Below are positions 3,659 to 37,999 of a stretch of DNA of 64,000 bases, one piece after another; position 1 is the stretch's first letter, and every line of letters starts with the position of its first letter. The position numbers and the translations under genes are program-made. The stretch comes from Malacoraja senta (Eukaryota), in NCBI GenBank assembly GCA_038087875.1, contig CM075995.1, positions 11,224,001-11,288,000 on the forward strand, in the 5' to 3' direction. Under the pieces are notes generated by a model. It did not search any database. It saw nothing but the letters and a program-made list of their open reading frames with translations, and was not told where the DNA came from.

Positions 3659-3792
3659 CTGACAGATCCAGGACTTGCAGGCAGGAATCCCGCTTCTCCA
3701 AAGCCTCCAGGAGCAGCTGCAGTCCCGGCGAGGCGATGCCGGGATTTTGGGAAAGGTCCAGGAAAGCCAGAGATGAGAGGGAGGGGATGCAG
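3659..3792 (-). CDS. TONSL: TONSL-like gene, LRR exon (CIPSLSSLAFLDLSQNPGIASPGLQLLLEALEKRDSCLQVLDLSG)
   Basis: Pyrimidine tract plus AAG acceptor at 3793, donor GTGAGC at 3658; peptide resembles the TONSL final LRRs (LDLSANP..LLSTLQKR..L.LSG). Confidence 0.8.
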
Positions 3793-4033: not shown

Positions 4034-4233
4034 NNNNNNNNNNNNNNNNNNNNNNNNNNNNNNNNNNNNNNNNNNNNNNNNNNNNNNNNNNNNNNNNNNN
4101 NNNNNNNNNNNNNNNNNNNNNNNNNNNNNNNNNNNNNNNNNNNNNNNNNNNNNNNNNNNNNNNNNNNNNNNNNNNNNNNNNNNNNNNNNNNNNNNNNNNN
4201 NNNNNNNNNNNNNNNNNNNNNNNNNNNNNNNNN
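4034..4233. other. Assembly gap (200 N, true size probably unknown)
   Basis: Run of exactly 200 N. Confidence 0.99.
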
Positions 4234-4946
4234 GAGTGCAGCAAGGCTCGGTACTGGGGCCGTAACTATTTACAATATATATTAATGATTTAGACGATGG
4301 GATTAAAAGTAACACTAGCAAATTTGCTGATGACACAAAGCTGGGCGGCAGTGTGAACAGCAAAGAGGATGCTGGGAGGTTGCAGGGTGACTTGGACAGG
4401 TTGAGTGAGTGGGCAGATGCAGTATAATGTACAGTAGATAAATGTGAGGTTATCCAATTTGTTGGACTTCATAACAAGAAGATTTGTGTACAGGAGGTTA
4501 ATCCTCGGGATGGCGGACTGTCATACCAGGAAAGAGTGGGCTTGTATTCATTGGAATTTAGAAGGATGAGAGGGTATCATATAGAAACGTATACAATTAT
4601 AAAAGGACTGGACAAGCTGGATGCTGGAAAAATGTTCCCAATGATGGGGGAATCCAGAACCAGGGGCCACAGTCAAAGAATAAAAGGGAGGCCATTTAAA
4701 ACTGAGACAAGAAAAAAAGTTTTCACCCAGAGAATAGTGAATTTGTGGAATTCTCTGCCAAAGAAGGCAGTGGAGGCCAATTTACTGGATGAATTAAAAA
4801 TATTTAGTTAGAACTCTAGGGGCTAGCAGAATCAAGGGATATGGGGAGAAGGCAGGCACGGGTTACTGATTGTGGATGATCAGCCATTATCACAATGAAT
4901 GGCGGTGCTGGCTCGAAGGGCCAAATGGCCTCCTTATTTTCTACGT
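4234..4946 (+). mobile_element. CR1 LINE 3' part, internally deleted; tail resumes after the solo LTR (5807-5818)
   Basis: QGSVLGP, KFADDTKL and FTQRIVNLWNSLP motifs; CR1 3'UTR. Confidence 0.9.
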
Positions 4947-5806
4947 TGATGAAGCCGAATAAAGTTATAAAAATAAGAAGAAATTAAAATAGGTTTCTGG
5001 GCTAGCTTACAGCTTATATTTAGTGTCAAATTAGGCTTGCCTCAGGTTGCAGTGTGTGGGATAATAAGTACCATAACATTGTCTCCCAAGTGAGGAAGTG
5101 ATGAGAGAGAAACAGCTAGTCACATCTTTGAAGTAAGATACCGTAAACCAAATGACCAATGTTTATGGGGGAGGAGGCAATAAAGGAAGAGAGAAACAGC
5201 TAGTCACATCTTTGAAGTAAGATGCTGTAAACCAAATGACCAATGTTTATGGGGGAGGAGGCAATAAAGGAAGAGAGAAACAGCTAGTCACATCTTTGAA
5301 GTAAGATGCCGTAAACCAAATGACCAATGTTTAGGAGGGGCGAAGTGATGAGAGAGGATCCAGGGAAGTGGAAAGATAAGATGCCATAAAACAAATGGCC
5401 TATGTTTATGAAGGACCAAGTGACAGAGAGGAAACAGCGAAAGAGCTAGGGTGATCTCTTTGAAGATAAAATGACCTAAAACAAATGGCCAATGTTTTAG
5501 TATATCATAACCTGTAAACAAAAGGCCTTTGATGTGATGCCTTTTCCTGTACCTCTGACCATGACTAATGTCTGTGGAATGTGCTAATGTGACAAAGAAA
5601 CACTATATAATGCGATGTAATTCTGTTGTTCAGAGAAGGGGACCGAGGACAGTCGAGTGTCTACATTGGTCACTTAGCTGGAATTCTCGCTCCCTTCCAT
5701 CGGCCGATGTTAAGTAAAGTTTTGAACTGGTCTACCAAACAGTTTGTGTGGTGTCTGTTTATTGAGAAGCGAACCTGGTTTAGTAGTTATAAAAGTAACT
5801 TTTTCA
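4947..5806 (+). mobile_element. Solo LTR (860 bp) of a class I-type ERV
   Basis: TG..CA ends, 4-bp TSD ACGT (4943-4946 / 5807-5810), 84-bp tandem repeats (cagctagt at 5113, 5197, 5281), TATATAA near 5604, AGTAAA near 5713. Confidence 0.85.
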
Positions 5807-5866
5807 ACGTTTCTATGACCTGTGGTTTGTAAACTGCCAATATAGGCAGTCTTTGAATGTGATACT

Positions 5867-5872
5867 TTTATT
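5867..5872 (-). terminator. Candidate polyadenylation signal for a short TONSL-like transcript
   Basis: AATAAA on minus strand in AT-rich sequence 1.5 kb after the stop at 7348. Confidence 0.3.
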
Positions 5873-6321
5873 CAAGAAAACAAACAAACATACATAGTAT
5901 GTTGTATATAAAAATATATATTAAAAAATTAAATTAAAAAAGGGTCAGACAGGAGTGCAGCTGTTCTGATGGCTTTTCGGAAGGGACCGTTTTGGAAGGG
6001 GGACAAATGTGGGGAGACTTTGGAGCACTGATCATCATTGGAATCATAATTTAGAGGCTTTCTTTCAAAAAAGATTTCTTCAATTTGTGATGAATTTGAC
6101 TCTCTTTGAGAGTCGTATGAGCAGCAGGTATGGCAGAATGTACACTTGAAAACAGGGGAGCTGAGATTTAGATCGATGTTGCAGTTGTTTACATCGAATA
6201 CCTCCCTCCCATCCCGATTGACTTAGCTGAAGTCTGCTTTGTAAAGAGGGAACATGGGCATGGACATTCCTTGTTCATCTGGTGAACACTACTTTTGCTT
6301 TGCTTTCAGTTTCGTTTATTT

Positions 6322-7035
6322 TGTTTAGAGATACAGCGTGGAAACAGGCCCTTCGGCCCATCGAGACCAGTGATCTCCGCATACTAACACTAATCTACAC
6401 ACACTGGGGACAATTTACAATTATAACCAAGCCAATTACCCTACAAAATCGCTAGAATTTAGGAGATTGAGAGGGGATCTTATAGAAACGTACAAAATTC
6501 TTATGGGGTTGGACAGGCTAGATGCAGGAAGATTGTTCCCGATGTTGGGGAAGTCCAGGACAAGGGTTACAGCTTAAAGATAAGGGGGAAATCCTTTAAG
6601 ACCGAGATGAGGAAAAACTTTTTCACACAGAGAGTGGTGAATCTCTGGAACTCTCTGCCACAGAGGGTAGTTGAGGCCAGTTCATTGGCTATATTTAAGA
6701 GGGAGTTAGATGTGGCCCTTGTGGCTAAGGGGATCAGGGGGTATGGAGAGAAGGCCGGTACGGGATACTGAGTTGGATGATCAGCCATGATCATATTGAA
6801 TGGCGGTGCAGGCTCGAAGGGCCGAATGGCCTACTCCTGCACCTATTTTCTATGTATCTATGTATCTAAAATGTCTTTGGCATGTGTTGAGGAAACTGAA
6901 GATCTCGGAGAAAACCCACGCGGTCACAGGGAGAACGTACAAAGTCCGTACATTCAGCACCCATAGTCAAAATAGAACCCGAGTCTCCGGTGCTGTAAGG
7001 CATCAACTCTACCGTTGCACCACCATGCCGCCCTG
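6322..7035 (-). mobile_element. V-SINE (HE1-like) split by a plus-strand CR1 3' fragment (about 6446-6868)
   Basis: Both halves match the intact SINE at 17935-18243; the insert ends in a (ctatgtat)n tail. Confidence 0.85.
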
Positions 7036-7347
7036 TTGGACACCGTCCATATTTTCTGGACACTCCTTAATTTGACCATTCATTCAATGTTGAAATGCAC
7101 TGTTTACAGCAGCAACAGCAGTCAGATTTTGATTTATTAAGTACCGGCAGTGGCTATAGGGGAACTGCTCAAATTTTGGCTGCATTCCAGCCTGACACTT
7201 CTGAATGTTTACAAATTGAGTTATGATCTTTCCAGTACTTGGAACATTGATTGGTTTAAACTGGGATTGCGTTATTTACAGTAACAGCGTTAAGATTTTG
7301 GATTTTAACAATTTGAAAAGCTTTGTTGAGTCATTTTTGATACTTGA

Positions 7348-7500
7348 TCACCCAGAACAGAGGGGGGAGGGTTGGTTGCTGGTGGGATCTCCCTGTTGCT
7401 TTACAGGTCCATTCACAGGTCCAGGCAGCGGGCAGTCGAGGGTCCTGCCCAAGCCGACTGCCTGTCCCTCTTGCGGATCTAATTCCATGCCCGCGGGTCC
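7348..7500 (-). CDS. Candidate terminal exon of short TONSL-like isoform (GPAGMELDPQEG..SPLCSG*)
   Basis: Acceptor tgtgttccctctccag at 7501, phase 0 matching exon 8358-8521, 50 open codons then TGA; no recognisable homology. Confidence 0.35.
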   Translation of the reverse strand, partial: GPAGMELDPQEGQAVGLGRTLDCPLPGPVNGPVKQQGDPTSNQPSPLCSG

Positions 7501-7708
7501 CTGGAGAGGGAACACATGGTGCCCACAGGGACTCCAGAGGCCTTCTGTGAACACTACTTGGTACATCCTGCCTACAGATGATTCTTCTTCTTATCGAGTC
7601 CACACACAAGATTAGAAGTTGTTCAGCCAGAGCTGAACACACTTCTCGGCATCTACATACAATGGTGCCTGTCTTGTGCTTCCTCTGCGTGGTGGTGGAA
7701 AGATTGGT

Positions 7709-8057
7709 GAAACATAGAAAATAGGTGCAGGAGGAAGCCATTCGGCCCTTCGAGCCAGCACGCCATTCATTGTGCTCATGGCTGATCGGCCCCAATCAAT
7801 AACCCGTGCCTGCCTTCTCCCCATATCCCTTGACTCCACTAGCCCCTAGAGCTCTATCTAACTCTCTCATAAATCCATCCAGTGATTTGGCCTCCACTGC
7901 CCTCTGTGGCAGGGAATCCCACAAATTCACACCCTCTCTGGGTGAAAAACTTTTTTCTCACCTTTTTCTCACCCCTTTATTCTAAGACTGTGGCCCCTGG
8001 TTCTGGACTTGCCAACATTGGGAACATTATTCCTGCATCTAGCTTGTCCAGTCCTTT
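7709..8057 (-). mobile_element. CR1 LINE 3' fragment
   Basis: aaacatagaaaataggtgcagg tail and C-terminal RT sequence. Confidence 0.9.
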
Positions 8058-8357
8058 TATGAAAACAGGGCCGCGACATGAACGCTCTTTCCTTGATACC
8101 ATTGTCATTTGATAATTGATTTAAGTTTGTAAACTGCTCTTTGGCAGTATTGATCCTTCCAGTACGTACTGTTATTATGAAGTAAAGTAAAATAAAGTCT
8201 CTTTCTACATTAAAAAAAAGGTTCAGACACAGTGAAGCTCCCTCTACACCCTCCCATCACACTCCTGCGGGTCAGACAGAGTGGCGCTCCCTCCAGCCAC
8301 TCCTTGATGCCTGTGTGGTGGTTTTGGTTAGCGGGGTGCATCACCGCGGGTACTGAC

Positions 8358-8521
8358 CTCACTGTCCCGGGCTGTGAGGCTGGCGCCATTGTCGATGAGC
8401 AGTTGTGCGACACTCAGACATCCGTTGGCGAGGGCATCGTGTAGAACCGTGGTGCCCCCGCACTGACTGTCCTCCTCGTTGTTGGGTGACACTCCCTTGT
8501 TCAGCAGCAAGCTGACGATCT
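8358..8521 (-). CDS. TONSL: TONSL-like ankyrin exon, 164 bp (EIVSLLLNKG..QCGGTTVLHDALANGCLSVAQLLIDNGASLTARDSE)
   Basis: Acceptor ggttacag at 8522, donor GTCAGT at 8357; phase 1 to 0; TONSL-type CxGxTxLHDAL repeat. Confidence 0.9.
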
Positions 8522-8689
8522 CTGTAACCAGAACTCCGTTACTGTCACCACCTCCCGCACGCAGCAACAGGGCCTTCTGCCCATCCAACCCCTCGCTCCC
8601 ATCTCCAGCCCTGTGAACGACAATCCCACCCTTTGCTGAAACCCTGGAGTGACCCTGCTTCCGACTGCCCCATGTGTGGGAGGGGCAAC

Positions 8690-9900
8690 GGTTCAAGGAG
8701 ATGTGCGAGGCATTACACAGAGGGTGGTGGGTGCCTGGAACATGCTGCTACGGCTGGCGGTGGGGAAGATACAACAGTGATGATTACAAGGGCTTTAGAT
8801 AGGCACGTGCATATGCAGGGAATGGAGGGATTTGGATCACGTGCAGGCAGAGGAGGTTAGTTTAACTTGGCATCGTGTTCAACACTGACATTGTGGATTA
8901 AGGGCCAGTTCTGCACTGTACTGTTCTCTTATCTGCCTCCACCACCACTCATGGCAGCTCATTCCAGGCATCCACCACACATTATGTAAACAAAAAGTGC
9001 TCCACCTACTCCCTTTAAATCTCCGCCACCTCCAGTTTAAATTCCATTTGGAATATTTTTGGAGCACGACCACGAACCAAGAACCCTTTCACTCTAAAAT
9101 GATGCCCTTTAGTACTTGGCATTTCCACCCGGGCAAAAAGTTCTGACTGTCTACCCTATCGCTGCATCTCACAACGTTACAAACCTCGATCAGGTCACCT
9201 CTCAACTTCTGACGTTCCAGAGAAAACAATCCAAGTCTGTCCAACAAATTCACAACTCTCAGTGTGAAAACGTTTTTTCTAAAAACTGAGATGAGAAAAA
9301 ACCTTTTCACCCAGAGAGTTGTGAATTTGTGGAATTTTCTGCCACAGAAGGCAGTGGAGGCCAAATCACTGGATGCATTTAAGAGAGAGTTAGATAGAGC
9401 TCTGGGGGCTAGTGGAGTCAAGGGATATGGGGAGAAGGCAGGTACGGGTTACCGATTGTGGATGATCAGCCATGATCACAATGAATGGAGGTGCTGGCTC
9501 GAAGAGCCGAATGGCCTCCTCCTGCACGTATTTTCTATGTTTCAACAACTCTCTGTAGTTAATACCCCTCTTCCAAACAACACTCTGGTAAACCATCTCT
9601 GCACCCTATCCAAAGCACCCACATCCTTCCTGTAATGGGGCGACCAGAACTGCATGCATTACACAAAATGCAGTTTAAAGTCTTTTAAAGCTGCATCATA
9701 GCTTCCTGACTCTTATAGTCAATGCCCGACTGATGAAGGCAAGCAGACTTTACGCCGTTTGTACCACTCTATCTGCTTGCATTGCCACTTTCAGGGAGCT
9801 GTGAATGTGGAGCCCAAGATCCCTCTGTACATCAATGCTGTTAAGGGCCCTGCTCGGCTTAAACTGCATCTGTCATTTCTCTGCCCATGCCTGCATCCGC
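8690..9900. mobile_element. Cluster of CR1 fragments on both strands
   Basis: CR1 3' motifs; younger plus-strand piece at about 9277-9543 inside an older minus-strand copy. Confidence 0.75.
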
Positions 9901-9960
9901 TCTGAACCCAGCTGTACACCTTGACAGTCTTCCCCACAGATAAGTGGGAAGGGCACTCAC

Positions 9961-10033
9961 CCAGCCAGCCGTGGTTACAAGCCTCATGGAGGGGGGTCCA
10001 GCCCGCATTTTCTCGCTCACACAGAGGGTGACC
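9961..10033 (-). CDS. TONSL: TONSL-like ankyrin exon, 73 bp (GHPLCERENAGWTPLHEACNHGWL)
   Basis: Acceptor cctcccccag at 10034, donor GTGAGT at 9960; GWTPLHEACN ankyrin motif. Confidence 0.92.
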
Positions 10034-11120
10034 CTGGGGGAGGGGGGGGGGGGGCAACAAGTCAGCTCACAGCATCTGTACATGACGCCCGACCCCCCCC
10101 ATACCCCTCCCCACACTCACTCCCCCAAACCACTCCCACCCATGCCCACACCCACCCCTTCCACCATAACCGTCCCCACTCACCCTCCCTTGTGAGGGAG
10201 GTGCCCTGTGAGAAAAGTGTGAGTGTTTGGCTCGAGAGCCTTCGGCGAGGAGAGGAGGCTACGCAAAACGCTGGAGAGGGAGAGACGAAAGAAGGAGATG
10301 TCAGGCAAGCTGATTCAGTGCGACGCTTGCAGTATGTGGGAGGTCAAGGACACTGCTGGTGCCTCTGGCTGCTACTTATGTTAGAAGTGCATCCAGGTAC
10401 AGCTCCTGAAGGACCGTGTTGGGGAACTGGAGAAGCAAGTGGATGACCTCAGGTTCGTCCGAGAAACTGAGTCGTTCCTCGACAAGTCCTACAGGTACTG
10501 GAAGAGGGAAGGTGGGTGACGGTGAGAAAGGGAGGGAAACATGGAATGCAAACGTCCCTGTCTTGTGAACAGGTTCACCCACCTAGAAGCTGTCGGGACA
10601 GAAGACAGCTGAGCGGCGGACTGGCTTGCGAAGCAAAAAGGGCTGTTGAGCCAAAACCAAAGAGGCTAACGTCAGGCAACGCCATTGTGGTTGGAGATCC
10701 ATTGTGAGAGGTACGGACAGGGGTTTCTGCGGCAACAGACGGGATTCGAGGATGGTGTGCTGCCTTCCTGGTGCCAGGATCCAGGATGTCACGGACAGAG
10801 TGCAGAAAATCCTCAAGAGCGAAGGTGAACAGCCGGAAGTGGTAGTGCATGTCGGCACAAATGATGTCGGAAAGAAGGGGATGAATATTCTGCAGCGTGC
10901 CTTTAGAGAGCTCGGAAAAATGCTGGAAAGCAGGACCTCCAGGGCTGTTATCTCCAGTTTGCTTCCAGTTCCTCGTGCTGGCGAGAGCAGGAACAGGGAG
11001 ATACGGAACCTGAATGTGTGGCTGAGGAACTGGTGCAGGGGGCAGGGATTTAGATTCTTAGATCACTGGGATCTGTTTTGGAGTAAGGGGGAACTGTACA
11101 AAAGGGACGGATTGCATCTT

Positions 11121-11327
11121 ATTATTATTAATTTATTTTTATTGGAAGCAATTGTACAAGGATAAATCGCTCGGCATCTACCATTATACAATTATTGTAC
11201 AGCTTCATTTTTTTCTTCAAATTTTATCATAACGAACACACAATAGACAGAAAACAAAAAACACCAATTAAAGAAACAAAAACAATAAATAAATAAATAA
11301 ATAAATAAATACATAAGATTTTTTTTT
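11121..11327 (-). mobile_element. Short LINE-like 3' end inserted in CR1 ORF1
   Basis: Interrupts GLHL-NRWGT; minus-strand AATAAA and (TAA)n tail. Confidence 0.5.
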
Positions 11328-11793
11328 AAAGGTGGGGGACCAGCATTCTGGCAGGCAGGTTTGCCACTGCTACACGGGTGGTTTTAAACTGAATAAGGTG
11401 GGGTGGGGTGTCAAATGGGATAGTCGAGGATGGAGTTAAAGGGAAAGAGAGTAAAGGGATAGTTAATGACCCCAGAATTAACGGGAAAGGAAGCTCACAA
11501 AGGGATAAGAGTATATGGCCAAGTGTAATAGGGATCGATGTGAAAGGTGAGATGCGTAAGGAATTAAAAGTATTATATATGAATGTGCGAAGTATAAGAA
11601 GTAAAGTAGATGATCTTGAGGCTCAGTTAGAGGTTGGTAGATAAGACATTGTGGGGATTACTGAGACGTGGCTGCAGGAGGATCGGGCCTGGGAACTTAA
11701 TATTCAGGGTTATACATCCTATAGAAAGGACAGGCTGCTGGTGAGGGATGGAATTCAGTCCCTTGTGAGGGAAGACATAGGGACTGACGAGGT

Positions 11794-14700
11794 AACATAG
11801 AAACATAGAAAATAGGTGCAGGAGTAGGCCATTCGGCCCTTCGAGCCTGCACTGCCATTCAATATGATCATAGCTGATCATCCAACTCAGTATCCTGTAC
11901 CTGCTTTCTCTCCATACCCCCTGATCCCTTTAGCCACAAGGGCCACATCTAATTCCCTCTTAGATATAGCCAATGAACTGGTCTCAACTACATTCTGTCG
12001 CAGAGAATTCCAGAGATTCACCACTCTCTGTGTAAAAAATGTTTTTCTCATCTCAGTCCTAAAAGATTTCCCCTTTATCTTTAAACTGTGACCCCTTGTT
12101 CTGGACTTCCCCAACATCGGGAACAATCTTCCTGCATCTAGCCTGTCCAACCCCTTAAGAATTTTGTAAGTTTCTATAAGATCCCCCCTCAATCTTCTAA
12201 ATTCTAGCGAGTACAAGCCAAGTCTATCCAGTCTTTCTTCATATGAAAGTCCTGACATCCCAGGAATCAGTCTGGTGAACCTTCTCTGTACTCCCTCCAT
12301 GGCAAGAATATCCTTCCTCAGATTAGGAGACCAAAACTGTACGCAATACTCCAGGTGTGGTCTCACCAAGACCCTGTACAACTGCAGTAGAACCTCCCTG
12401 CTCCTATACTCAAATCCTTTTGCTATGAATGCTAACATACCATTCGCTTTCTTCACTGCCTGCTGCACCTGAATGCCTACTTTCAATGACTGGTGTACCA
12501 TGACACCCAGGTCTCGTTGCATCTCCCCTTTTCCTAATCGGCCACCATTCAGGTAATAATCTACTTTCCTGTTTTTCCCACCAAAGTGGATAACCTCACA
12601 TTTATCCACATTAGACTGCACCTGCCATGCATTTGCCCACTCACCCAGCCTATCCAAGTCATCTTGCAGCCTCCTAGCATCCTCCTCACAGCTAACACTG
12701 CCCCCCAGCTTCGTGTCATCCGCAAACTTGGAGATGTTGCATTCAATTCCCTCATCCAAATCAGTAATATATATTGTAAATAGCTGGGGTCCCAGCACTG
12801 AGCCTTGCGGTACCCCACTAGTCACTGCCTGCCATTCTGAAAAGGACCCGTTTACTCTTACTCTTTGCTTCCTGTCTGCCAGCCAGTTCTCTATCCACAT
12901 CAATACTGAACCCCCAATACTGTGTGCTTTAAGTTTGTATATTAATCTCTTATGTGGGACCTTGTCGAAAGCCTTCTGAAAGTCCAGATATAACACATCC
13001 ACTGGTTCTCCCTTATCCACTCTACTAATTACATCCTCGAAAAATTCTATAAGATTCGTCAGACATGATTTACCTTTCATAAATCCATGCTGACTTTGTC
13101 CAATGATTTCACCATTTTCCAAATGTGCTGCTATCCCATCTTTAATAACTGACTCTGGCAGTTTCCCCACTACCGATGTTAGACTAACTGGTCTGTAATT
13201 CCCCGTTTTCTCTCTCCCTCCCTTTTTAAAAAGTGTGGATACATTAGCTATCTTCCAATCCTCATGAACTACTCCAGAATCTAAGGAGTTTTGAAAAATT
13301 ATCACTAATGCATCCACTATTTCTGGGGTTACTTCCTTAAGTACTCTGGGATGCAACCTATCTGGCCCTGGGGATTTATCGGCCTTTAATCCATTCAATT
13401 TATCTAACACCACTTCCCGGCTAACCTGGATTTCACTCAGTTCCACCATCTCATTTGACCCCCGGTCCCCTGCTATTTCCGGCAGATTAATTAAGTCTTC
13501 CTTAGTGAAGACAGAACAAAAGTAGTTATTCAATTGGCTGCCATGTCCTTGTTCCCCATGATCAATTCACCTGTTTCTGACTGCAAGGGACCTACATTTG
13601 TTTTAACTAATCTTTTTCTCTTCACATATCTATAAACAATTTTGCAGTCAGTTTTTATGTTCCCTGCCAGTTTTCTTTCATAATCTATTTTCCCTTTCCT
13701 AATTAAACCCTTTGTCCTCCTCTGCTGGACTCTGAATTTCTCCCAGTCCTCTGGTAGGCTGCTTTTTCTGGCTAATTTGAATGCTTCATCTTTTGTTTTG
13801 ATACTATCCCTGATTTCCCTTGTTATCCACGGATGCACTACCTTAACTGATTTATTCTTTTGCCAAACTGGGATGAACAATTGTTGTACTTCATCCATGC
13901 AGCCTTTAAATGCTTTCCATTGCATATCCACCGTCAACCTTTTATACATAGATACATAGATACATAGAAAATAGGTGCAGGAGTAGGCCATTCGGCCCTT
14001 CGAGCCTGCACCGCCATTCAATATGATCATGGCTGATCATCCAACTCAGTATCCCGTACCTGCCTTCTCTCCATACCCCCTGATCCCTTTAGCCACAAGG
14101 GCCACATCTAACTCCCTCTTAAATATAGCCAATGAACTGGCGTCAACTACCCTCTGTGGCAGAGAGTTCCAGAGATTCACCACTCTCTGTGTGAAAAAGT
14201 TTTTCCTCATCTCGGTCTTAAAGGATTTCCCCCTTATCCTTAAGCTGTGACCCCTTGTCCTGGACTTCCCCAACATCGGGAACAATCTTCCTGCATCTAG
14301 CCTGTCCAACCCCATAAGAATTTTGTACGTTTCTATAAGATCCCCTCTCAATCTCCTAAATTCTAGCGAGTATAAGCCAAGTCTATCCAGTCTTTCTTCA
14401 TATAAAAGTCCTGACATCCCAGGAATCAGTCTGGTGAACCTTCTCTGCACTCCCTCTATGGCTATAATGTCCTTCCTCAGATTTGGAGACCAAAACTGTA
14501 CGCAATACTCCAGGTGTGGTCTCACCAAGACCCTGTACAACTGCAGTAGAACCTCCCTGCTCCTATACTCAAATCCTCTTGCTATGAAGGCCAACATACC
14601 ATTCGCTTTCTTCACTGCCTGCTGCACCTGCATGCCTACTTTCAATGACTGGTGTACCATGACACCCAGGTCTCGCTGCACCTCCCCATTTCCTAATCGG

Positions 14701-16037
14701 CCACCATTTAGATAATAGTCTGCCTTCCCGTTTTTGCCACCAAAGTGGATAACCTCACATTTATCCACATTATACTGCATCTGCCAAACATTTGCCCACT
14801 CACCCAGCCTATCCAAGTCACCTTGCAGTCTCCTAGCATCCTCCTCACAGCTAACACTGCCCCCCAGCTTAGTGTCATCCGCAAACTTGGAGATGTTGCT
14901 TTCAATTCCCTCGTCATCATTAATATAAATTGTAAATAGCTGGGGTCCCAGCACTGAGCCTTGCGGTACCCCACTAGTCACTGCCTGCCATTGTGAAAAG
15001 GACCCGTTTACTCCTACTCTTTGCTTCCTGTTTGCCAGCCAGTTCTCTATCCACATCAATACTGAACCCCCAATACCGTGTGATTTAAGTTTGTATCCTA
15101 ATCTCTTATGTGGTACCTTGTCGAAAGCCTTCTGAAAGTCCAGATACAACACATCCACTGGTTCTCCCCTATCCACTCTACTAGTTACATCCTCGAAAAA
15201 TTCTATAAGATTCGTCAGAGACGATTTACCTTTCGTAAATCCATGCTGACTGTGTCCAATGATTTCACCACTTTCCAAATGTGCTGCTATCCCATCTTTA
15301 ATAACTGACTCTAGCAGTTTCCCCACTACCGATGTTAGACTAACTGGTCTGTAATTCCCCGTTTTCTCTCTCCCTCCCTTCTTAAAAAGTGGGGTTACGT
15401 TTGCTACCCTCCAATCCTCAGGAACTACTCCAGAATCTAAAGAATTTTGAAAAATTATCACTAATGCATCCACTATTTCTGGAGCTACTTCCTTAAGTAC
15501 TCTGGGATGCAGCCTATCTGGCCCTGGTGATTTATCGGCCTTTAATCCATTCAATTTACCCAACACCACTTCCCGACTAACCTGGATTTCACTCGGGAAG
15601 TGGTGTTGGGTAAATTGAATGGATTAAAGGCCGATAAATCACCAGGGCCAGATAGGCTGCATCCCATTTTAAGAATCAATTGCCAGTCTATCTTGGCCAA
15701 TTCACTTCTCATACCCTCAAAGTTACCCTTCTTTAAGTTCAGAACCCTTGTTTCTGAATCACTTATGTCACTCTCCATCCTAATGAAGAACTCAACCATA
15801 TTATGGTCACTCTTGCCCAAGGGGCCACGCACAACAAGACTGCTAACTAACCCTTCCTCATTACTCAATACCCAATCTAGAATAGCCTGCTCTCTCGTTG
15901 GTTCCTCTACATGTTGATTTAGAAAACTATCCCACATACATTCCAAGAAATTCTCTTCCTCAGCACCCTTGCCAATTTGATTCACCCAATCTATATGTAG
16001 ATTAAAGTCACCCATTATACCTGTTTTACCTTTGTTG
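11794..16037 (-). mobile_element. CR1 LINE, 5'-truncated, split by a younger CR1 (13945-15666)
   Basis: 548-aa RT ORF 11887-13533 (QGSVLGP, FADD); endonuclease part at 15667-16037. Confidence 0.95.
13945..15666 (-). mobile_element. Young 5'-truncated CR1 with fold-back 5' end
   Basis: 507-aa RT ORF 14046-15569; TSD TTTTA at 13940-13944 / 15667-15671; 74-bp inverted repeat at its 5' junction. Confidence 0.95.
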
Positions 16038-17075
16038 TAGAGTCACTGTGGATTGAGTTGAGGAATTGTAAAGGCAAGAAGACACTAATTGGTGTTATTT
16101 ACAGACCCCCAAATAGTAGCCGGGATGCAGGGTGTAAGTTGCAGCAGGAGTTAAAACTGGCATGTAACAAAGGTAATGCCACTGTGGTGATGGGGGATTT
16201 CAATATGCAGGTAGACTGGGACAATCAGGTTGGTTGAGGACCCTAAGAAAGAGAGTTTGTAGAATGCCTCCGAGATGGATTCTTAGAGCAGCTTGTAATG
16301 GAGCCGACCAGAGAAAAGGCAATTCTGCATTTAGTGTTGTCCAATGAACCAGATATGATAAGAGAACTCGAGGTAAAGGAACCGCTTGGAGGTAGTGATC
16401 ATAATATGATTAGTTTTAATCTGCAATTTGAGAAGGAGAACGTTAAATCGGAAGTGGCAGTGATGCAGTTGAACAAAGGGGACTATGAAGCATGAGAGGG
16501 GAGCTGGCCAAGGTAGACTGGAAAGGGATCCTAGCAGGAATGACGGTGGAACAGCAATAGCGGGAATTTCTGGGCATAATCCGGAAGACGCGGAATCATT
16601 TCATTCCAAAAAGGAAGAAAGAATCTAAGGGTAGTAGGAGGCAACCGTGGCTGACAAGAGAAGTTAGGGATAGAATAAAACTAAAAGAAAAGATGTATAA
16701 CATTTATGGAATTCCCTGCCACAGAGAGCAGTGGAGGCCAAATCACTGGATGGATTTAAGAGAGAGTTAGATAGAGCTCTAGGGGCTAGTGGAGTCAAGG
16801 GATATGGGGAGAAGGCAGGCACGGGTTATTGATAGGAGACGATCAGCCATGATCATAATGAATGGCGGTGCTGGCTCGAAGGGCCGAATGGCCTCCTCCT
16901 GCACCTATTTTCTATGTTTCTATGAACTGCCCACCCATTCCTCCCCCACACACACTTCCAGCCCCGCTCCCCCATCCTCTCCACCATACACCCATCCCCC
17001 AGCCTCGCACCCCCACCCACACACAAATAGCCCCCCTCCCCCACCGATGGCTCCGCTCAGCCCCCCCCCCCCCAC

Positions 17076-17165
17076 CTGCTGGATGAGGGTGAATGCCTGC
17101 TGTGCGTCGCCGCGGATACAGGCCCGGTGCAGGGGGGTCTCCCCCTTCATGTTCCGCTTCCACTT
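17076..17165 (-). CDS. TONSL: TONSL-like ankyrin exon, 90 bp (KWKRNMKGETPLHRACIRGDAQQAFTLIQQ)
   Basis: Acceptor atatttcag at 17166, donor GTGGGG at 17075; phase 0/0; GETxLHRACI motif of the TONSL first ankyrin repeat. Confidence 0.92.
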
Positions 17166-17219
17166 CTGAAATATCAAAGGGGGTGAGGTTAGCAGGGTCG
17201 CCCTATGACCCCTGCCCCC

Positions 17220-17532
17220 TCCCTCAGTACCGCCCTCCCTCACTGACTCTACCTCAGTTCCACCCCTCCCTTACCGCCCAACTTCAGTACCGCAATCCAT
17301 CACTGCCCATCCCACAATACCCTCAGTACCGCCCCTCCGTCTGTACCCCACCCCCCCAGTACCCCACTCTCCCATTACCCCTCTCCCATTACCTCACTCC
17401 CCCAGTACCCCCGCCCCTCAGTACCCCACTCCCCCAGTACCCCAGTACCCCTCCCTCAGTACCCCACTCCCCCAGTACCCCACTCCCTCAGTACCCCACT
17501 CCCTCAGTACCCCACTCCCCCAGTACCCCACT
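17220..17532. repeat. Minisatellite (cagtaccccactccc-like)
   Basis: Directly visible. Confidence 0.85.
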
Positions 17533-17934
17533 ACATGTCTCGGAGCTCCGAAAAATTGCACAATTTTGTGGATTGTCTTTTTGGAGCAGGTACAACTCTG
17601 TGTGTTTTGGGCTGTGAGCTGTGTCATAATCGAACTACATAGCTCCCACAACAGTGGCTGGCAGCCTGCCAACAAACAGTGTTGCACCAAAAGGGGGAAA
17701 ACAACGCTTCTAGACTTTATGCTTAAGAAGGAACTGCAGATGCTGGAAAATCAAAGGTAGACAAAAATGCTGGAGAAACTCAGCGGTCTCATCTGTGTCT
17801 GGAACAACCCCCTGCTGCCTCATCGTAACTGACCGGGCTGGTCCGGTTTTGTGTGGTGTGGGAGGATTTCTACACCGTCTCGACTTTCTGAATGCGGCCT
17901 TGGAAGCTGGAACTGACCCATTCTTAATATTTTT

Positions 17935-18243
17935 TTAGTTTCGAGATACAGCGCGGAAACAGGCCCTTCGACCCATCGAGCCTGCACCGACAAGCAATCC
18001 CCGCACATTAACACACACACAATCGGCACAATTTTGCATCTATACCAAGCCAATTAACCTACAAACCTGAACGTCTTTGGAGTGTGGGAGGAAACCGAAG
18101 ATCTCTGAGAAAATCCACGCGGTCACGAGGAAAACGTACAAACTCTGTAGTGACAGCACCCGTAGTCGGGATGGAACCCGGGTCTCCGGCGCTGCAAGCG
18201 CTGTAAGGCAGCAACTCTACCACTGCGCCACCGTGGCCGCCCT
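17935..18243 (-). mobile_element. Full-length V-SINE (HE1-like)
   Basis: tRNA-like head with A/B boxes at the right end, V-domain (gtgtgggaggaaaccgaag), CR1-derived 3' end. Confidence 0.85.
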
Positions 18244-18534
18244 CGGCAAGACCAGCCGAGGGCGGTCACGCAACAGACAGCAGAAATCCCCTTTGTTGCT
18301 GCAGGAACAGTGAAGACCAGCTGGGGTTATCTGCGAGAATCCGCAGCTCCCCGAGGAACAGGTTTGGGAGCCGCCATTACCGGACACTTTCATCCTCCGA
18401 GCCAACACCACTCGTCTCCCTCCCTCGAACTGTCCCTAGTTTGTGTGTGGGCACTGGCTTCATGCCATTTGGACAATTTGTTATTTGTAACTGTACTTTA
18501 GTATAGTAATTGTCATCATGCCGGGTCAGCGTTC

Positions 18535-20290
18535 TGGGGAACCAGCGCCTTGCCAGAGCTATGCCCAGGCAGCCCCTCTGCCACTGGCCCCAGGGTTGAC
18601 ACTGAGGTAAGGGAGAGACCAGCGGGTAGGGAAGAGGCAACCGCTGCACAGGGTGAGGCCGGTGTATCAGGCACCAAGGTTGTGTCCAAAGATGGGGATG
18701 GGGATGGGGACTCCATCCACAGTGGGTGGGTGGAAGGGGACTCCTCGGATAGTGAGTCCATGGAGTTTCTCGCTCCCCCCGACGCCACTCCACTCATCCC
18801 AGTGGAGGAAATCCGCGAGTTCATCGCGGCCACCGAAGCAGCCACACATCGGCCCAATCTGGCCCCCCTCTGATGGCCAAACATTGCACGGGCTCACCAG
18901 CTCGCTGAACCTCGTCCTCGCAAAGGAAAGGGGCAAAGTGATGAAGGGGAACGACCGGCGTCAGCTCAGGATCTTCTAGTACGACCTGGAAAAGGGACGC
19001 TGAGGTCCAGAGCAGCGTCGTTCCTGCTGAGGGTAGAGGGACCAGTAACGTGTCCCTTGGAGCCTGGACCCAGAAGCAAAAGGCAACTCCGCTCCACCTT
19101 GGGTCCGTAGGGGGAGGAGCAGCTCTGGTGTCAGCGACCAGGGGACAGGTGAGGGGATCTACTGTACTCATGACATGGCGATCACCATAGCCAGTTATAA
19201 CGTGAATGGCAGCAGGGGGTCTCTCCGCAGGTTTAACCATCTCTCAATCCTGAGAGATGGGAGATATGTGGTGAGCTTCCAGCAGGAAACCCACACCAAC
19301 GCAGCAGATGAGTCCACCTGGCCCGGATCCATTCGGATCGCACTTTGTGGCCCGGATCCATCTTTTATACGCCACCGTGGAGTGCCTCGTTAAAGGAACC
19401 TTGACAGCCCCCATTCCCTTTGGCAGAGGAGTACGTCAGGGCTGCCAACTATACGCCATCTGTGTGGAGCCGTTCCTTAGTCTGCTTCAGTGGAGGTTGA
19501 GGGGCATGGTTCTACGCGAGCCAGACATGGAGGTGGTCCTCTCAGCCTATGCCGATAAACATCCTCATGATCACTGACCCCTTCGACCTGCAGAAGATGC
19601 GCGAGTGCCAACGGGTCTTCTCGGCCAGGACAAACATGGGGAAATGTTCCGGACTCTTGGTGGTCGCTAACAGGTGGACTCCCTCTGGAGGAGATGTGGC
19701 CTTTCACTTGGAGCACCACACACTTCCTCTACTTGGGAGTCTACCTGGCTGGCGAACTGGCAGGAGCTGGAGATGAAAGTCGTCGCCGGGTTGGGGCGTT
19801 GGTAAGGTCTCCTCAGAGTGCTTTCACTCCTCAGAGTGCTTTCGGAGTGCCGGGTTGGGGTGTTGGTCATTAACCAACTGGTGGCCTCCATGCTCTGGTA
19901 CCGGTAGACAACCGTGGTCCCATCGGCCACCTTTGCCGGGATCATCCGAAGGAAGTTGGTGGACGTTTTCTGGGGCAACGGAAAGCACTGGGTCTCTGCA
20001 GCGGTCCTGATTCTCCTGATCGAGGAGGGCGGTCAGTCGCTGGTGTGCATTCTCACCCAGATGGCAGCTGTCCGCCTCAGGACCCTGCGGAGATACTAGA
20101 AAGGGACTACGCGCTGTCCATGTCCGCCCTGGGGAATTCACAGGACCGCTGGGCACCGCGGGGATGGAATGCATCTTTGACAAGAGAGTAAAAGTGTAGC
20201 ATTTAAGAATATTTGTTTAGTTAGTTGGGGGGTTTTGTATTACAGTGGTGGATTTGTTTGGCATTGTTTTGTATTGTATATATTATTGCC
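18535..20290 (+). mobile_element. Tx1-clade LINE, heavily deleted
   Basis: ORF2 start MAITIASYNVNGSR..QQETH (APE endonuclease); RT remnants FGRGVRQGC and LSAYAD. Confidence 0.75.
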
Positions 20291-21002
20291 ATAACTGATC
20301 TTCATCTTTGGACACCCTGTGGCGCCCCTCCCTCACTACCGCCCCTCCCACAGTGAGCTTGCGAGGGACTGCCCTTCCTCCCTTCCCCACCACATGCTGC
20401 TGCACGCTGATTTCCCGGAAGGGAGGATGTGGTCTCGCCAGCATCTATAGTTCGGAAACAGCACAGACTCGAAGACTGAAGCAGCCAGTGTGAAGGTCAG
20501 TGGGGGAAAGTTGCCCTCGTGAGTCACGACATTGCGTAAGCATCAGGAAGTCACGATGCAGCTTCATAATACTTTGGCCTGGCAGCATTTGGAGAGTTGC
20601 GTGCACATCTGCTCGCCTCATCACAGGAAAGATGTGCCACTTTGGACAGGGTGCAGAGGATGCTGCCTAGATTAGAGGGTTTCAGCTAGGGACGGACTTG
20701 GATTGTTTTCTCTGGAATGCCAGTTGAGGGGACACCTGGTAGACATATATTCAATTACAAGAGCAATAGACAGGGTAGACAGCCAGAACCTTTCATCCCA
20801 GGATGGCCATTTGCAAGACTAGACTATCTTTAATAGACAGAAAATGCTGGAGTAATTCAGTGGCTCAGGCAGCAGCTTTGGAGAAAAGGAACAGGTGACA
20901 TTTCGGGTCGAGACCCTACATCAGGCTTAGTCTGAGTTACTCCAGCATTTTGTGTCTATCTTCAGTGTAAACCAGTATCTGCAGTTACTTAGGTATATCA
21001 GG

Positions 21003-22610
21003 TTGTTTAAAAAAGAACTGCAGATGCTGGAAAAATCGAAGGTAGACAAAAATGCTGGAGAAACTCAGCGGGTGAGGCAGTATCTATGGAGCGAAGGAAT
21101 AGGTGATGTTTCGGGTCGAGACCTTTCTTCAGACTGATGTGGGGATGACGCGGTGGGAGGGCGGGAAGAAGAATGGAAGAGGCGGAGACATTGGGCTGTG
21201 GGAGAGCTGGGAAGGGAAAGAGGAAGAAAGCAAGGACTACCTGAAATTGGAGGTCAATGTTCATACCGCTGGGGTGTAAACTGGAGGTCAATGTTCATAC
21301 CGCTGGGGTGTAAACTGGAGGTCAATGTTCACACCGCTGGGGTGTAAACTGGAGGTCAATGTTCATACCGCTGGGGTGTAAACTGGAGGTCAATGTTCCT
21401 ACCGCTGGGGTGTAAACTGGAGGTCAATGTCCATACCGCTGGGGTGTAAACTGGAGGTCAATGTTCATACCGCTGGGGTGTAAACTACCCAAGCAAAATA
21501 TGAGGTGCTGCTCCTCCAATTTGCGGTGGGCCTCACTCTGGCCATGGAGGAGGCCCAGGACAGAAAAGTCGCATTCGGAATGGGAGGGGGAGTTGAAGTG
21601 CTGAGCCAATGGGAGATCAGGTTGGTTATTGCGAACTGAGCGGAGGTGTTGGGCAAAGCAATTGCCTACGCTTGGTCTCACCGATGCAGAGCAGCTGACA
21701 CCCAGAGCAGCGGATGCAATAGATAAGGTTGGAGTCGGTGCAGGTGAACCTCTGCCGCACCTGGAAAGACTGCTTAGGTCCTTGGTTGGAGTCAAGGGGG
21801 GAGGTAAAGTGACATGTGTAGCATTTCCTGCGGTTGCAAGGGAAAGTACCAGGGGAGGGGGTGGTTTGAGTGGGAAGGGACGAATTGACCAGGGAGTTAC
21901 GGAGGGAGCGGTCTCTGCAGAAAGCCGAAAGGGAAGGAGATGGGAAGATGTGGCCAGTGGTGGGTTCCCGTTGGAGGTGGTGAAAATGTCGGAGGATTAT
22001 TTGTTGTATGTGATGGCTGGTAGGGTGGAAGGTGAGGACAAGGGGGACTCTGCCCTTGTTATGAGTGGGGGGATGGGGAGTGAGAGCAGAGCAGCGGGAT
22101 ATGGAGGAGACCCTGGTGAGAGCCTCATCTATAGTCGAAGAGGGGAACCCCCGTTCCATAAAGAATGAGAACCTCATCCTGGGAGCAGATGTGGCGTAGA
22201 CGGAGGAATTGTGAGTAGGGGATAGAGTCCTTACAGTAAGCAGGGTGGGAATAAGTGTAGTCCAGGTAGCCATGGGAGTCAGTGTGTTTGTAGTAGATGT
22301 CAGTCAGTAGTCTGTTACCTGTGGTGGAGATAGCGAGGTCCAGAAACAGTAGGGAGATGTCGGAAATGGTCCAGGTGTATTTGAGTGCCGGATGCAAGTT
22401 AGTGGTGAAATGGATGAAGTCAGTGAGTTCTGCCTGGGTGCAGGAGGTAGCACCAATGCAGTCGTCAATGTAGCGGAGGTAGACTTCAGTAATAGGGCCA
22501 CGGTACGCCTCGAACAAGGATTGTTCGATGTACCCTACAAAGAGGCAGGCATAGCTGGGGCCCATGCGAGTGCCCATAGCTACGCCTTGGATTTGGAGGA
22601 AACGGGAGTC
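21003..22610 (-). mobile_element. Penelope-like element, 5'-truncated
   Basis: RT MGTRMGPSYACLFVG..YLRYIDD; GIY-YIG-like NLIYCIRC..CIGETKR; terminal hammerhead-like core. Confidence 0.9.
21249..21486. repeat. 7 x 34-bp tandem repeat inside Penelope
   Basis: ggaggtcaatgttcataccgctggggtgtaaact starting at 21249, 21283, 21317, 21351, 21385, 21419, 21453; no spacers. Confidence 0.95.
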
Positions 22611-22629
22611 AATAGTGATGGTGATAGTG

Positions 22630-23325
22630 GAGAAGTTTAAAGGATATGCTCAGGACAAGTTTTGTTTTTAACACAGAGGGTGGTGATGAGGGCCTGGAAT
22701 GTGTTGCCAGGTGTGGTGGTGGATAGATTCCTAGTGCCATTTAAGGAACATGGAAGTGACATATGGTTTAGAGGTATATGGGCCAAACATGGGCAGGTGG
22801 GATTAGTGTAGTGGCGGCATCTTGGACGGCATGAGGACGTTGGACCGAAGGGTCTATTTTCGTTGCTGTTTGACCATAACACAACTCACTCTGTAACTCA
22901 AGCTCAGGTTAACATATGATGGCCATTTGTCGGCACTGGACCTGTACTCGCTGGAGTTTGGAAGGATGAGGGGGACCTCATTGAAACATACAGAATAGTG
23001 ACAGGCCTGGAGAGAGGGGATGTGGAGAGGGTGTTTCCACTAGTGGGAGAGTCTAGGACTAGAGGTCATAACCTCAGAATTAAAGGATGAATGAGGAGGG
23101 ATTTCTTTAGTCAGGTAGTAGTGAATCTGTGGAATTCAATGCCACAGACAGCTGCGCAGGCCATCAATGCATATTTTTTAAGGCAGAGATTGATAGGTTC
23201 TTGATTACTAAGGGGTTATGGAGCGAAGGCAGCAGAATGAGGTTGAGAGGGAAAGATAGAGCAGCCATTGAATGGAGTAGACTTGATGGGTTGAATAGCT
23301 TAATTCTACTTCTAGAACACATGAA
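22630..23325 (+). mobile_element. Old CR1 3' fragments
   Basis: ctgtactcgctggagttt and gtgaatctgtggaattc motifs with 3'UTRs. Confidence 0.7.
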
Positions 23326-23541
23326 CAGATGAAGCCCAGGTAACAATCCTGGGGACTCTCTTCGGCACACGCTGCAATGAATGGCATCCTTCCCGTAGCT
23401 GGGTGAGCAGAGCCCACACAGTGTGCAATACTTCAACCCCTCAAGGGGCTGGTAGGGATGGGCATGGCCTCTGACCACCAGGGTGCTGGCGACAGGAGGG
23501 TCGATGGTGAGGATGTGGGCAGTGTCGGAGTCCTCACTCAC

Positions 23542-23597
23542 CTTCCTGTTCTGTGCCGTGTACATGGTGCTCTCTGGCAGCCTGCCGTGCCCTCGCC
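23542..23597 (-). CDS. TONSL: TONSL-like gene exon 2, 56 bp (GRGHGRLPESTMYTAQNRK)
   Basis: Acceptor tgtgttgcag at 23598, consensus donor AAG|GTGAGT at 23541; phase 0 join gives NRK-KWKRN. Confidence 0.7.
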
Positions 23598-23919
23598 CTG
23601 CAACACAGCACGTCAACATCACCGCTGCAACCCAGTAGCACGACAATGGGCCGAAGGGCCTGTTTACCCCTCCCCCACCACCCCCACATCCTCAGGGGAG
23701 GAGAGAGAAGGGGGGAGGAGAGAGAGAGAGAGGAGGGGAGAGAGAGAGGGGGGAGAGAAGGGAAAGGGGAAGAGAAAGGAAAGGGGGGGTAGAGGGGGAA
23801 GGGGGAAGACGGGGGGGGGGGGGGGGGGGGGAGAGGGGGGATGGGGAGAAGAGGGGGGAGGAGGAGAGGCAGAAGATGATGCGGATGGGGACAGTGAAAG
23901 TGAAAGTGAAAGTGAAAGT

Positions 23920-24370
23920 GAGTCGGCAGGTCCGGCCGAGTGACCGGTGCCCTGGACGACTGGGGGATTGTCCGGCGAGTCGCTCCTGCCCGGACCCCTC
24001 TCCTCCCGCCCCCCCAGCACTCACCCTCACCCTCTCCCTCTCCCTCTCCCTCTCCAAGACCCGACCCACCCACACAGACGGCCGGTCTGCCCTGTCCTGC
24101 ACTCACCCCAGTCGCCGGGCGCCGGGCTGGAGCGGGACCGCATCTGCATGGCTCTCTCTCTCTCTCCTCACCGCCCGCGCAGGGCTCTCAGTTGCCGGGG
24201 AGGGCGTGGACGGCGCCGGATAGGGGCGGAGGATTGCGATGACTGTCCTCCGGGAAGGAGCTAGCTGGGAGAGGGGGCGTGGGGTTAAGGAAGAGGGCGT
24301 TAGACGGACGCATTTGCAGCAGGGAAGACAGCTCCTTTCGGCCCGACCCAAAATGCAAACATCGACGCAA
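23920..24370 (-). promoter_or_regulatory. CpG-island promoter / first exon region
   Basis: Dense CpG outside any recognisable repeat; GC boxes ggggcggag (~24223) and gggggcgtgg (~24273). Confidence 0.65.
24107..24149 (-). CDS. TONSL: TONSL-like gene coding exon 1 (MQMRSRSSPAPGDW-G)
   Basis: GCC-ATG at 24149, in-frame TGA 21 nt upstream, donor GTGAGT at 24106; 43 nt gives phase 1 matching exon 2. Confidence 0.6.
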
Positions 24371-24454
24371 GTCACTTTTACAACATAGAAACAGTGAACT
24401 AGATGCCAAATCTAAACGCTGATCTCAGTCTCCATCACAGGAGGTAGACTATCG

Positions 24455-25670
24455 ATTGACGACTGTTACAAAGCCACTGCCTCCCACAACTAACTACACG
24501 TTTACCCACACTGCTTCCTGCAAAGACTCTATATTCCCAATTCCTCCGTCTACGCCGCATCTGCGTCCAAGATTAGATGTTCCATACCTGGACATCCGAG
24601 ATGTCCTCATTCTTTAGGGAATGGGCGTTCCTTTATTCTGATTATTCTGATTATATGTTAACCATAAATCTCTGTAAGGTGTCCTTGAGACCTCGGTATA
24701 AGGCGCCCATAAATAAAATTCATTATTATTATTATTATCATAGATCAGGCCCTCACATGTGTCTCCTCAGTACCCCTCAGCTCCACCCTTGCTCCCCTCC
24801 CCCATAGTCGCAACAGGGACAGAGTTCCCCTCACCCTTACCTTTCACCCCATCAGCCGTCGCATACAAAACATAATCCTCCAACATTTTCTCCACCTCCG
24901 ATGGGATCCTACCACTAGTCTCATCTTCCCATCTCCACATCTTTCCGCCTTTTGCAGAGACCATTTCCTCTGCAACTCTCTGGTTAACTCATCCCATCCC
25001 ACACAAAGCACCCCCTCCCCAGGTACCTTCCCCTGCAACTGCAACACCTGTCCCTATAGCTCCGCCCTCGACTCTGTCCACGACCACAAGGTTCACTTGC
25101 ACCTCCTCCTCTACTGTATCCATTGTTGAAGATGTGGACTAAATATCGGCGAGACTAAATGTAGACTGGGCGATCGTTTCGTTGAACACCTTCACTCAGT
25201 CTGCCTACCTGATTTCCCAGTTGCTAAATACTTTAATTCCCCTTCCCATTCCCGCACTGACCTTTCTGTCCTAGGCCTCCTCTATTGTCAGAGTGAGGCC
25301 AAAAACAAATTGGAGGAACAGCATCTCATATTTTGCTTGGGCAGCTTATAACACAGGGGCATTAAGATTTATTTCTCTAACTTCAACTAACCCCTGCACT
25401 CCCTCTCTCTCCATTTCTCCCGCACCCAAGTCACACCAGCTTCTCGTTCTCACCAAGAAAACAGCTATCAATGGCCTGTTTCCTTTATCATTGTTACTTT
25501 TTTGTTTCATTCATTTGTTCTATATCTCTTTACATCATCGTCTATATCTCTCGTTTCCCTTTCCCGTAACTTTCAGTCTGAAGAAGGGTATCGACCGAAC
25601 ATCACCCATTCCTTCTCTCCAGCGATGCTGGCTGTCCCGCTGAGATACTCCAGCATGTTGTGTCTGTCCA
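24455..25670 (+). mobile_element. Degenerate Penelope-like element
   Basis: Homologous to 21003-22300 (caattcctccgtctacgccgcatctg; atcggcgagactaaa). Confidence 0.8.
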
Positions 25671-37800: not shown

Positions 37801-37999
37801 GTGAAGTAATGGTGTTATCAGTCCCAGGCTAGGTCTGCAAAGTCAATGGTCTCGAAGTCTGAGTAGGGAGTATCAGTATTAGGTTCCCCTGGCCATCCTT
37901 CAACCATGTCGCCAGTAGAAGGACAACTACCAGGAGAAGGGCAATCACCCACAACCTCATCCTCACCAGTGTCGGAACCCCCACTTTCTCCGAATATGT

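Follow-up and report, generated by a model that had tools for sequence, protein, structure and literature searches.

What kind of protein a TONSL-like gene can encode when it appears to begin just before its ankyrin domain is the question raised by a locus of the skate Malacoraja senta, contained in a window of 64,000 nucleotides (the whole stretch of DNA analyzed here; coordinates in Table 1). A preliminary description had recognized there five minus-strand exons of such a gene, and had read them as a divergent, lineage-specific paralog lacking the N-terminal TPR (tetratricopeptide repeat) domain. As judged from database comparisons and phylogenetic trees, the gene is a fast-evolving, divergent paralog, which we term TONSL-B, and not the ortholog of canonical TONSL, termed TONSL-A (both labels are introduced in this analysis). 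We consider it fairly probable that its product is an adaptor with ankyrin, ubiquitin-like (UBL) and leucine-rich repeat (LRR) domains, which would read histone H4 unmethylated at lysine 20 (H4K20me0), recruit MMS22L and perhaps pair with TONSL-A, while having neither H3.1 selectivity nor the chaperone function of the TPR domain. The observed parts of this reading are the exons, the clade membership, the terminal LRR exons, the conserved positions and the lack of TPR exons in the assembled region.

Searches with the C-terminal part of the skate protein and with shark TONSL showed that “tonsoku-like protein” entries of cartilaginous fishes are of two kinds. TONSL-A is annotated in sharks and in six batoids, two of them skates (Leucoraja, Rhinoraja, Hypanus, Pristis, Mobula and Narcine). 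TONSL-B was found in Heptranchias (XP_067825196.1), Pristiophorus, Cetorhinus (XP_078392001.1), Carcharodon (XP_041040707.1), Hemitrygon (XP_072911291.1), Hypanus (XP_059818430.1), Leucoraja (XP_055487672.1) and Callorhinchus (XP_042188160.1), and both are annotated in five: Leucoraja, Hypanus, Heptranchias, Carcharodon and Pristiophorus. Over 109 residues of the ankyrin domain, the window product shares 67-72 identities with six TONSL-B rows and 50-61 with twelve chondrichthyan TONSL-A rows; likewise, the exon 3 peptide is 61-70% identical to TONSL-B proteins and 48% identical to TONSL-A of shark and skate. TONSL-B formed one clade in all four trees computed with FastTree and quick IQ-TREE runs from 571 columns beginning at the ankyrin domain, 146 of which are filled by the window. 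Support was 1.0 in FastTree and 100 by the Shimodaira-Hasegawa-like approximate likelihood ratio test (SH-aLRT) with 38 rows, and SH-aLRT was 100 with 25 rows and 99 with 24 rows under a site-mixture model. The skate gene lies within this clade, outside that of TONSL-A, and shares its short last exon.

The branches of TONSL-B are several times longer than those of TONSL-A, and that of Callorhinchus is a long one. Holding A and B together was not rejected in the 25-row set (approximately unbiased test, p-AU 0.58, with a likelihood 2.2 higher), a grouping that fits, without proving, a duplication in the chondrichthyan stem. In Heptranchias and Carcharodon the two genes lie on contigs of identical size and therefore likely share a chromosome, pointing to a local duplication. 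The bony vertebrates sampled have one TONSL gene per species, and a chimaera TONSL-A was not among the 120 of 969 matches listed. By these placements, the paralog is common to sharks, rays and skates and, probably, chimaeras. Hence the paralogy proposed in the preliminary description stands, with the gene inside TONSL-B in four trees, but a recent lineage-specific origin does not: only the loss of the TPRs, which shark and ray copies still have, is recent.

The five upstream exons have GT donors throughout (5/5) and CAG acceptors at the four downstream ones, with agreeing phases and an open frame, just as first described. Their ankyrin part matches gecko TONSL at 57/115 positions (E 2e-33) and constitutes a TONSL-type ankyrin domain. 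The exon 4 peptide matches TONSL in the structure 5ja4_D across all 24 residues (E 2.8e-09), and exon 5 is identical at 48/54 residues to the closest database protein, XP_055487672.1 of Leucoraja erinacea. Contigs of run X11 are identical to the window across exons 1 and 2, and in run X12, from a related skate, exon 2 is open and gapless with both splice sites unchanged; the coverage of runs X13 and X14 falls outside the exons. The in-frame TGA (24170-24168) that lies 21 nt before the predicted ATG and the CpG island around it were also borne out; this island, which ranks second in density among the CpG clusters of the window, is likely the promoter or 5' end, and 24264-24150 is likely 5' untranslated region. 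Before the ATG, the Leucoraja model matches the window in one frame after another, three in all, whereas after it the alignment is gapless, and the ankyrin reading frame is closed inside the ATG exon. We infer that in both skates, Malacoraja and Leucoraja, the sequence preceding the ATG would be untranslated, and that translation would start at 24149. Residues 17-29 of the Leucoraja model form a 13-residue segment without a counterpart in the window, situated between two overlapping matches to 24221-24215; it has the appearance of an insertion, accompanied by a duplication of 7 nt, in the 5' region of that skate. CpG density is highest in a cluster at 31250-31900 of the window, 7 kb upstream of the ATG, which has two open reading frames without a Pfam match; it is probably a mobile element, and could serve as an upstream promoter.

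The N-terminal TPR domain, the H3.1 reader of canonical TONSL, is lacking from the assembled region. TBLASTN with gecko, shark and ray proteins of both kinds retrieved ankyrin and LRR exons only, and a TPR profile built from 14 proteins reached a best E of 2.6 across 24,278 six-frame pieces of 722 kb. In a control whose profile omitted ray B, 8/8 40-residue pieces of the Hypanus TONSL-B TPR domain were retrieved at E of at most 0.012. The 98 kb from the ATG up to the scaffold end are gap-free and TPR-free, in keeping with the lack of upstream TPR exons noted earlier, and a ray TONSL-B protein gave no genome-wide TPR match in a strict first look. Because Leucoraja shares the same 5' region, the loss probably predates the split between Malacoraja and Leucoraja. 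It is therefore quite unlikely that we are dealing with a full-length TONSL-B like that of Heptranchias, whose TPR exons, missing from the assembly or put in the wrong place, would be joined to exon 2 or 3. Shark and ray TONSL-B proteins do carry TPRs, the scaffold is interrupted by gaps and its contigs are in questionable order, and the Leucoraja model, flagged as partial, opens at an acceptor-like site; however, besides escaping a search of such sensitivity in the gap-free sequence, the exons would have to lie beyond an entire GPT-like gene (see below), the 3' half of which sits on a 367-kb contig that has none, and to reach an ankyrin frame that is closed inside the ATG exon.

The TPR region has fared differently among the TONSL-B models, which fill 440, 330, 204, 131, 131 and 2 of its 440 columns: those of sharks and rays fill 131-440 and the skate gene none. 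As the TONSL-A model of Heptranchias itself fills just 282 of the 440, short models can be annotation artefacts. The Callorhinchus TONSL-B models begin six residues before the ankyrin domain, reflecting either an independent loss of the TPRs or an annotation truncation. In the TPR-bearing proteins, changes affect E198 and D363, H3.1-pocket residues of Xenopus TONSL (PMC13674474): E198 is replaced by K in Hypanus and by S in Heptranchias, and D363 by N in both rays, with the two kept in all seven non-B rows shown. The K of Hypanus stands at the position of human E199, where E199K is a SPONASTRIME variant (PMC13674474), and its N at that of D364.

At the other end, the gene does not stop at 7348 with about 192 residues, as had been supposed. 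Against 7/7 TONSL-B proteins, the peptide of 7500-7348 is no better than shuffles as a TONSL exon (146-298 of 300 shuffles score equally high), and 7348-7500 is at most an alternative intronic end. Beyond the gap of N lie two further TONSL exons, the penultimate one 60% identical to Heptranchias TONSL-B (E 4e-12) and the last one agreeing in length and stop position with 4/4 shark TONSL-B proteins compared (9-11 identities). A premature stop in this last exon was ruled out, as the shark TONSL-B proteins terminate at the same place. Consequently, the last two exons of the C-terminal LRRs of canonical TONSL are present, the earlier LRR exons being outside the assembly. In the Leucoraja ortholog XP_055487672.1 the ankyrin domain is followed by a helix, then by a linker and a UBL of TONSL type, where in the window the gap 4034-4233 intervenes. 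The phases, 0 at the end of exon 5 and 2 at the start of the LRR exon, require additional exons in between. Queries with the skate C-terminal part and shark UBL-LRR found the helix, UBL and middle LRR exons neither in 200 kb on the downstream side nor in 722 kb of the scaffold nor elsewhere in the genome, and we infer that the missing UBL and middle LRR exons sit in the gap. The product is thus likely an ankyrin-UBL-LRR protein of about 800 residues, a length estimated from the skate linker and the shark LRRs; the Callorhinchus model with the same layout has 784.

These observations also bear on the possibility of a 192-residue, ankyrin-only decoy that ends at 7348 and draws new H4 away from TONSL, BARD1 and SLF1. 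Although the proposed terminal exon has a phase-compatible acceptor, a stop and a polyadenylation motif (Table 1), and the middle exons are unassembled, its peptide is without a homolog, the capping ANK4 helices would go (PMC11551741), constrained LRR exons lie downstream, and the skate ortholog runs on into the helix and UBL. We regard such a protein as very unlikely, and a pure histone-competing decoy as less likely than a TPR-less adaptor.

The six positions of the H4K20 pocket read E, E, W, E, N and D, as first reported, five of the six being kept. Their spacings (0/29/33/38/41/74) fit E530, D559, W563, E568, N571 and D604 of the human protein, a numbering that presumably applies here. Of the ankyrin columns conserved in at least 90% of the other vertebrate rows 45/48 are kept, as against 33/61 of the variable ones (p 3.5e-6), and in the LRRs and tail the corresponding figures are 13/14 and 26/53 (p 0.005). 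This shows selection along the skate branch, though not necessarily at the present day. In the UBL, the positions that we take to correspond to R934 and G973 are invariant in 8/8 TONSL-B rows. The UBL dimerises via R934 and G973 (PMC13418528). A fold predicted from a single exon had a mean confidence (predicted local distance difference test, pLDDT) of 58.5 and was not used.

The genomic surroundings of the gene consist of two alanine-aminotransferase-like genes flanking it, which we take to be GPT (Pfam Aminotran_1_2 matches weakly, E 0.095). The second, GPT-b, is 47-62% identical to GPT-a in matched exons and may stem from the same local duplication as TONSL-B. Its halves are 535 kb apart, the 3' exons starting right after another gap on the 367-kb contig without a TPR exon. 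Canonical TONSL as part of a tandem GPT-TONSL block just beyond GPT-b was expected but is not supported, as it is not in the contig with the 3' half of GPT-b. Exon heuristics for further syntenic neighbors returned GPT-b exons only, and a GPT exon query found just two copies genome-wide, both on CM075995.1. VPS28, which we take to be an essential neighbor of human TONSL, had no match in the assembly in a search whose controls matched nowhere either. Possibly a GC-rich region is missing from the assembly, as canonical TONSL and VPS28 are without a match and only two GPT copies are present. The introns are filled by near-intact reverse-transcriptase reading frames of LINE (long interspersed nuclear element) type, at 11890-15623, 39514-42819 and many other places. 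The stretch 37800-54000 resembles a long-terminal-repeat retroelement or endogenous retrovirus, with an integrase C-terminus of murine leukemia virus type (38133-38927), a zinc knuckle (46383-46931) and a gag-like stretch occurring twice (47995-48402 and 50961-51368). About two thirds of the 322-kb region is repeated within itself.

Table 1. Features of the TONSL-B locus and its scaffold (window positions, unless the contig is named; o/e, observed/expected).
Feature	Position	Strand	Details
Malacoraja senta locus (window)	CM075995.1:11,224,001-11,288,000		58 kb from scaffold end
CpG-rich region around ATG exon	23900-24500	.	GC 0.62, CpG o/e 0.74; 24262-24107 conserved with Leucoraja model
ATG-bearing exon	24107-24264	-	start ATG 24149-24147; 43 coding nt (24149-24107); GTGAGT donor
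Exon 2, short linker preceding ankyrin domain	23542-23597	-	56 nt; CAG/GTGAGT
Exon 3, ankyrin repeat 1	17076-17165	-	90 nt; E530 equivalent kept; Pfam Ank
Exon 4, ankyrin repeat 2	9961-10033	-	73 nt; W563, E568, N571 equivalents kept; D559 is E
Exon 5, ankyrin repeats 2-3	8358-8521	-	164 nt; D604 equivalent kept
Terminal exon proposed earlier	7348-7500	-	CAG acceptor at 7500, phase-compatible; stop 7350-7348; AATAAA at 7138
Assembly gap, 200 N	4034-4233	.	taken to conceal capping helix, linker, UBL and most LRR exons
Penultimate exon, last LRRs	3659-3792	-	134 nt; AAG/GTGAGC; LRR_6 E 0.013
Last coding exon	2243-2313	-	stop TGA 2245-2243; 22 residues
GPT-a	CM075995.1:11,170,600-11,198,400	+	converges on TONSL-B 3' end
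GPT-b	CM075995.1:11,331,400-11,340,900 and 10,795,580-10,806,110	+	divergent duplicate; begins 83 kb upstream of ATG on other strand
CM075995.1 gaps	CM075995.1: 10,743,368; 10,795,302; 11,162,237; 11,228,034		

Several observations weigh against the adaptor reading, among them those that concern the assembly. The middle exons are absent from it, and the contig order at the scaffold end is likely wrong, with the contig starting at 10,795,502 probably following the present scaffold end. Furthermore, canonical TONSL was not found genome-wide with whole gecko TONSL, the gecko TPR domain, shark UBL-LRR and Leucoraja TONSL as queries (two of the four under a stricter first look), and hence the separate full-length gene expected beside a paralog has not turned up in this genome, though it is annotated in two other skates. 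This could mean that canonical TONSL was lost in Malacoraja senta and that the TPR-less TONSL-B is its sole TONSL, in favor of which gecko, shark and skate queries retrieved no TONSL-A exon with a tool that did retrieve the exons of this gene at 49-73% identity. However, we hold it to be extremely unlikely: given the presence of TONSL-A in six batoids, two of them skates, an assembly hole is likelier than a loss, and VPS28, also without a match (though without a positive control), points the same way.

Other points of the same bearing concern the gene itself. No transcript was seen for it, its splicing, start and expression being predicted; among the joints listed for four presumed-RNA runs over 4500-24400 there were only repeat-derived ones, swamped by repeats. 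An acceptor-like AG (24266-24265) precedes the ATG exon, at the point where the Leucoraja model begins too (24264), and the exon may not be the first of the transcript. In run X12 the ATG is outside the coverage, and exon 2 differs at 8/56 nt with one silent change, altering 6/19 residues, compared with 10/129 in its flanks (p 0.18), as in a neutral-like exon. The D559 position is E in the window and D in 35/35 other rows, a unique change; as its SLF1 counterpart, D838, salt-bridges K20 (PMC11551741), H4K20 binding by the window pocket may be altered. The neutral look of exon 2, the unique D559E and the lack of RNA support would also suit a recently disabled TONSL-B, inactivated when its 5' TPR exons were lost, with an ATG present by chance and with other exons that have yet to decay; the divergence of exon 5 from Leucoraja (6/54 residues, with about 8% in a nearby intron) likewise allows relaxed selection. 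Yet every visible exon (7/7) has an open frame and undamaged splice sites, the ancestral stop is in place, the conserved columns are strongly kept, and the loss, shared in the 5' region of Leucoraja, is probably older than the split of the two skates. Moreover, for the same exon canonical TONSL is the more divergent, agreeing at 46/55 residues between two skates, as against 48/54 for TONSL-B between the window and Leucoraja. On balance a disabled gene appears unlikely. From the comparative side, the place of the window inside TONSL-B varies by model, with rays in the 38-row tree and with sharks in the site-mixture tree. Repair in human cells is not rescued by TPR mutants deprived of H3.1 binding (PMC13674474), and a protein without TPRs may therefore be unable to take on the canonical function. 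Finally, Heptranchias TONSL-B has a full TPR domain with Q41, E52, D199, Y326 and D363 kept, the variable Q173 not being kept.

The favored reading, a TPR-less adaptor, gains definition from known systems. With vertebrate TONSL (PDB 5JA4 chain D) the skate gene shares a collinear ankyrin domain including the long finger-2 loop, five of the six H4K20 pocket residues, the terminal LRR exons, the UBL (in the skate ortholog) and the GPT neighbor, which lies next to TONSL in human too. It differs in having neither TPR nor acidic region, in D559E and in a C-terminus about 35-40 residues shorter, as in all TONSL-B proteins compared; its ankyrin domain is identical to that of gecko TONSL at 55/109 positions, a span over which gecko is about 75% identical to shark TONSL-A. 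The second “tonsoku-like” copies of chondrichthyans resemble it in clade and ankyrin signature and, in sharks, in the same short end. BARD1 and SLF1 (PDB 3C5R and 8PEF) also have an H4K20me0-reading pocket and no TPRs (PMC11551741); however, their other domains (RING/BRCT and BRCT/Nse5-like, respectively) are unrelated, whereas the skate gene has the LRR end of TONSL and lies inside the TONSL tree (in which BARD1 and SLF1 were not placed). Plant TONSOKU (TSK) is likewise a TONSL-family protein with one of the two histone-reading modules, but as a mirror image, keeping the TPRs and lacking the ankyrin domain (PMC9409234).

In TONSL the LRRs bind MMS22L and the TPRs prefer H3.1 (PMC9409234). By extrapolation from the human protein, the ankyrin pocket of TONSL-B would bind unmethylated H4K20 on new histones, perhaps weakened by D559E, the LRRs would bind MMS22L, and the UBL would dimerise, possibly with TONSL-A. 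Newly copied chromatin would then be found via histone H4 alone, with H3.1 not being read, and the protein would work beside canonical TONSL as a variant fork-repair adaptor devoid of chaperone function. More speculatively, and with only tentative confidence, we propose that a TONSL duplicate may have shed H3.1 reading stepwise over 400 million years, through pocket changes in rays and loss of the TPRs in skates and, independently, in chimaeras. The H4K20me0 reader, UBL and LRRs would have been kept, yielding a fork-repair adaptor blind to H3 variants, as a partner or modulator of canonical TONSL.

A second chondrichthyan TONSL found no description among the papers listed by literature searches (subscription papers and supplements lying outside the search). 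The relatives of TONSL-B sit in databases under an undifferentiated name, that of the skate being “uncharacterized”, all as automatic annotations, and the distinction made here corrects an annotation in which two different “tonsoku-like” genes of sharks and rays are conflated. PMC9409234 names the relative roles of the TPRs (H3.1) and the ankyrin domain (H4K20me0) as open. The graded series of TONSL-B proteins, with full TPRs, altered pockets or none, would offer natural alleles, and a constrained, naturally TPR-less paralog would be a test of what an ankyrin-UBL-LRR protein is capable of, be it partial rescue, dominant interference or a specialized role, for instance in the germ line.

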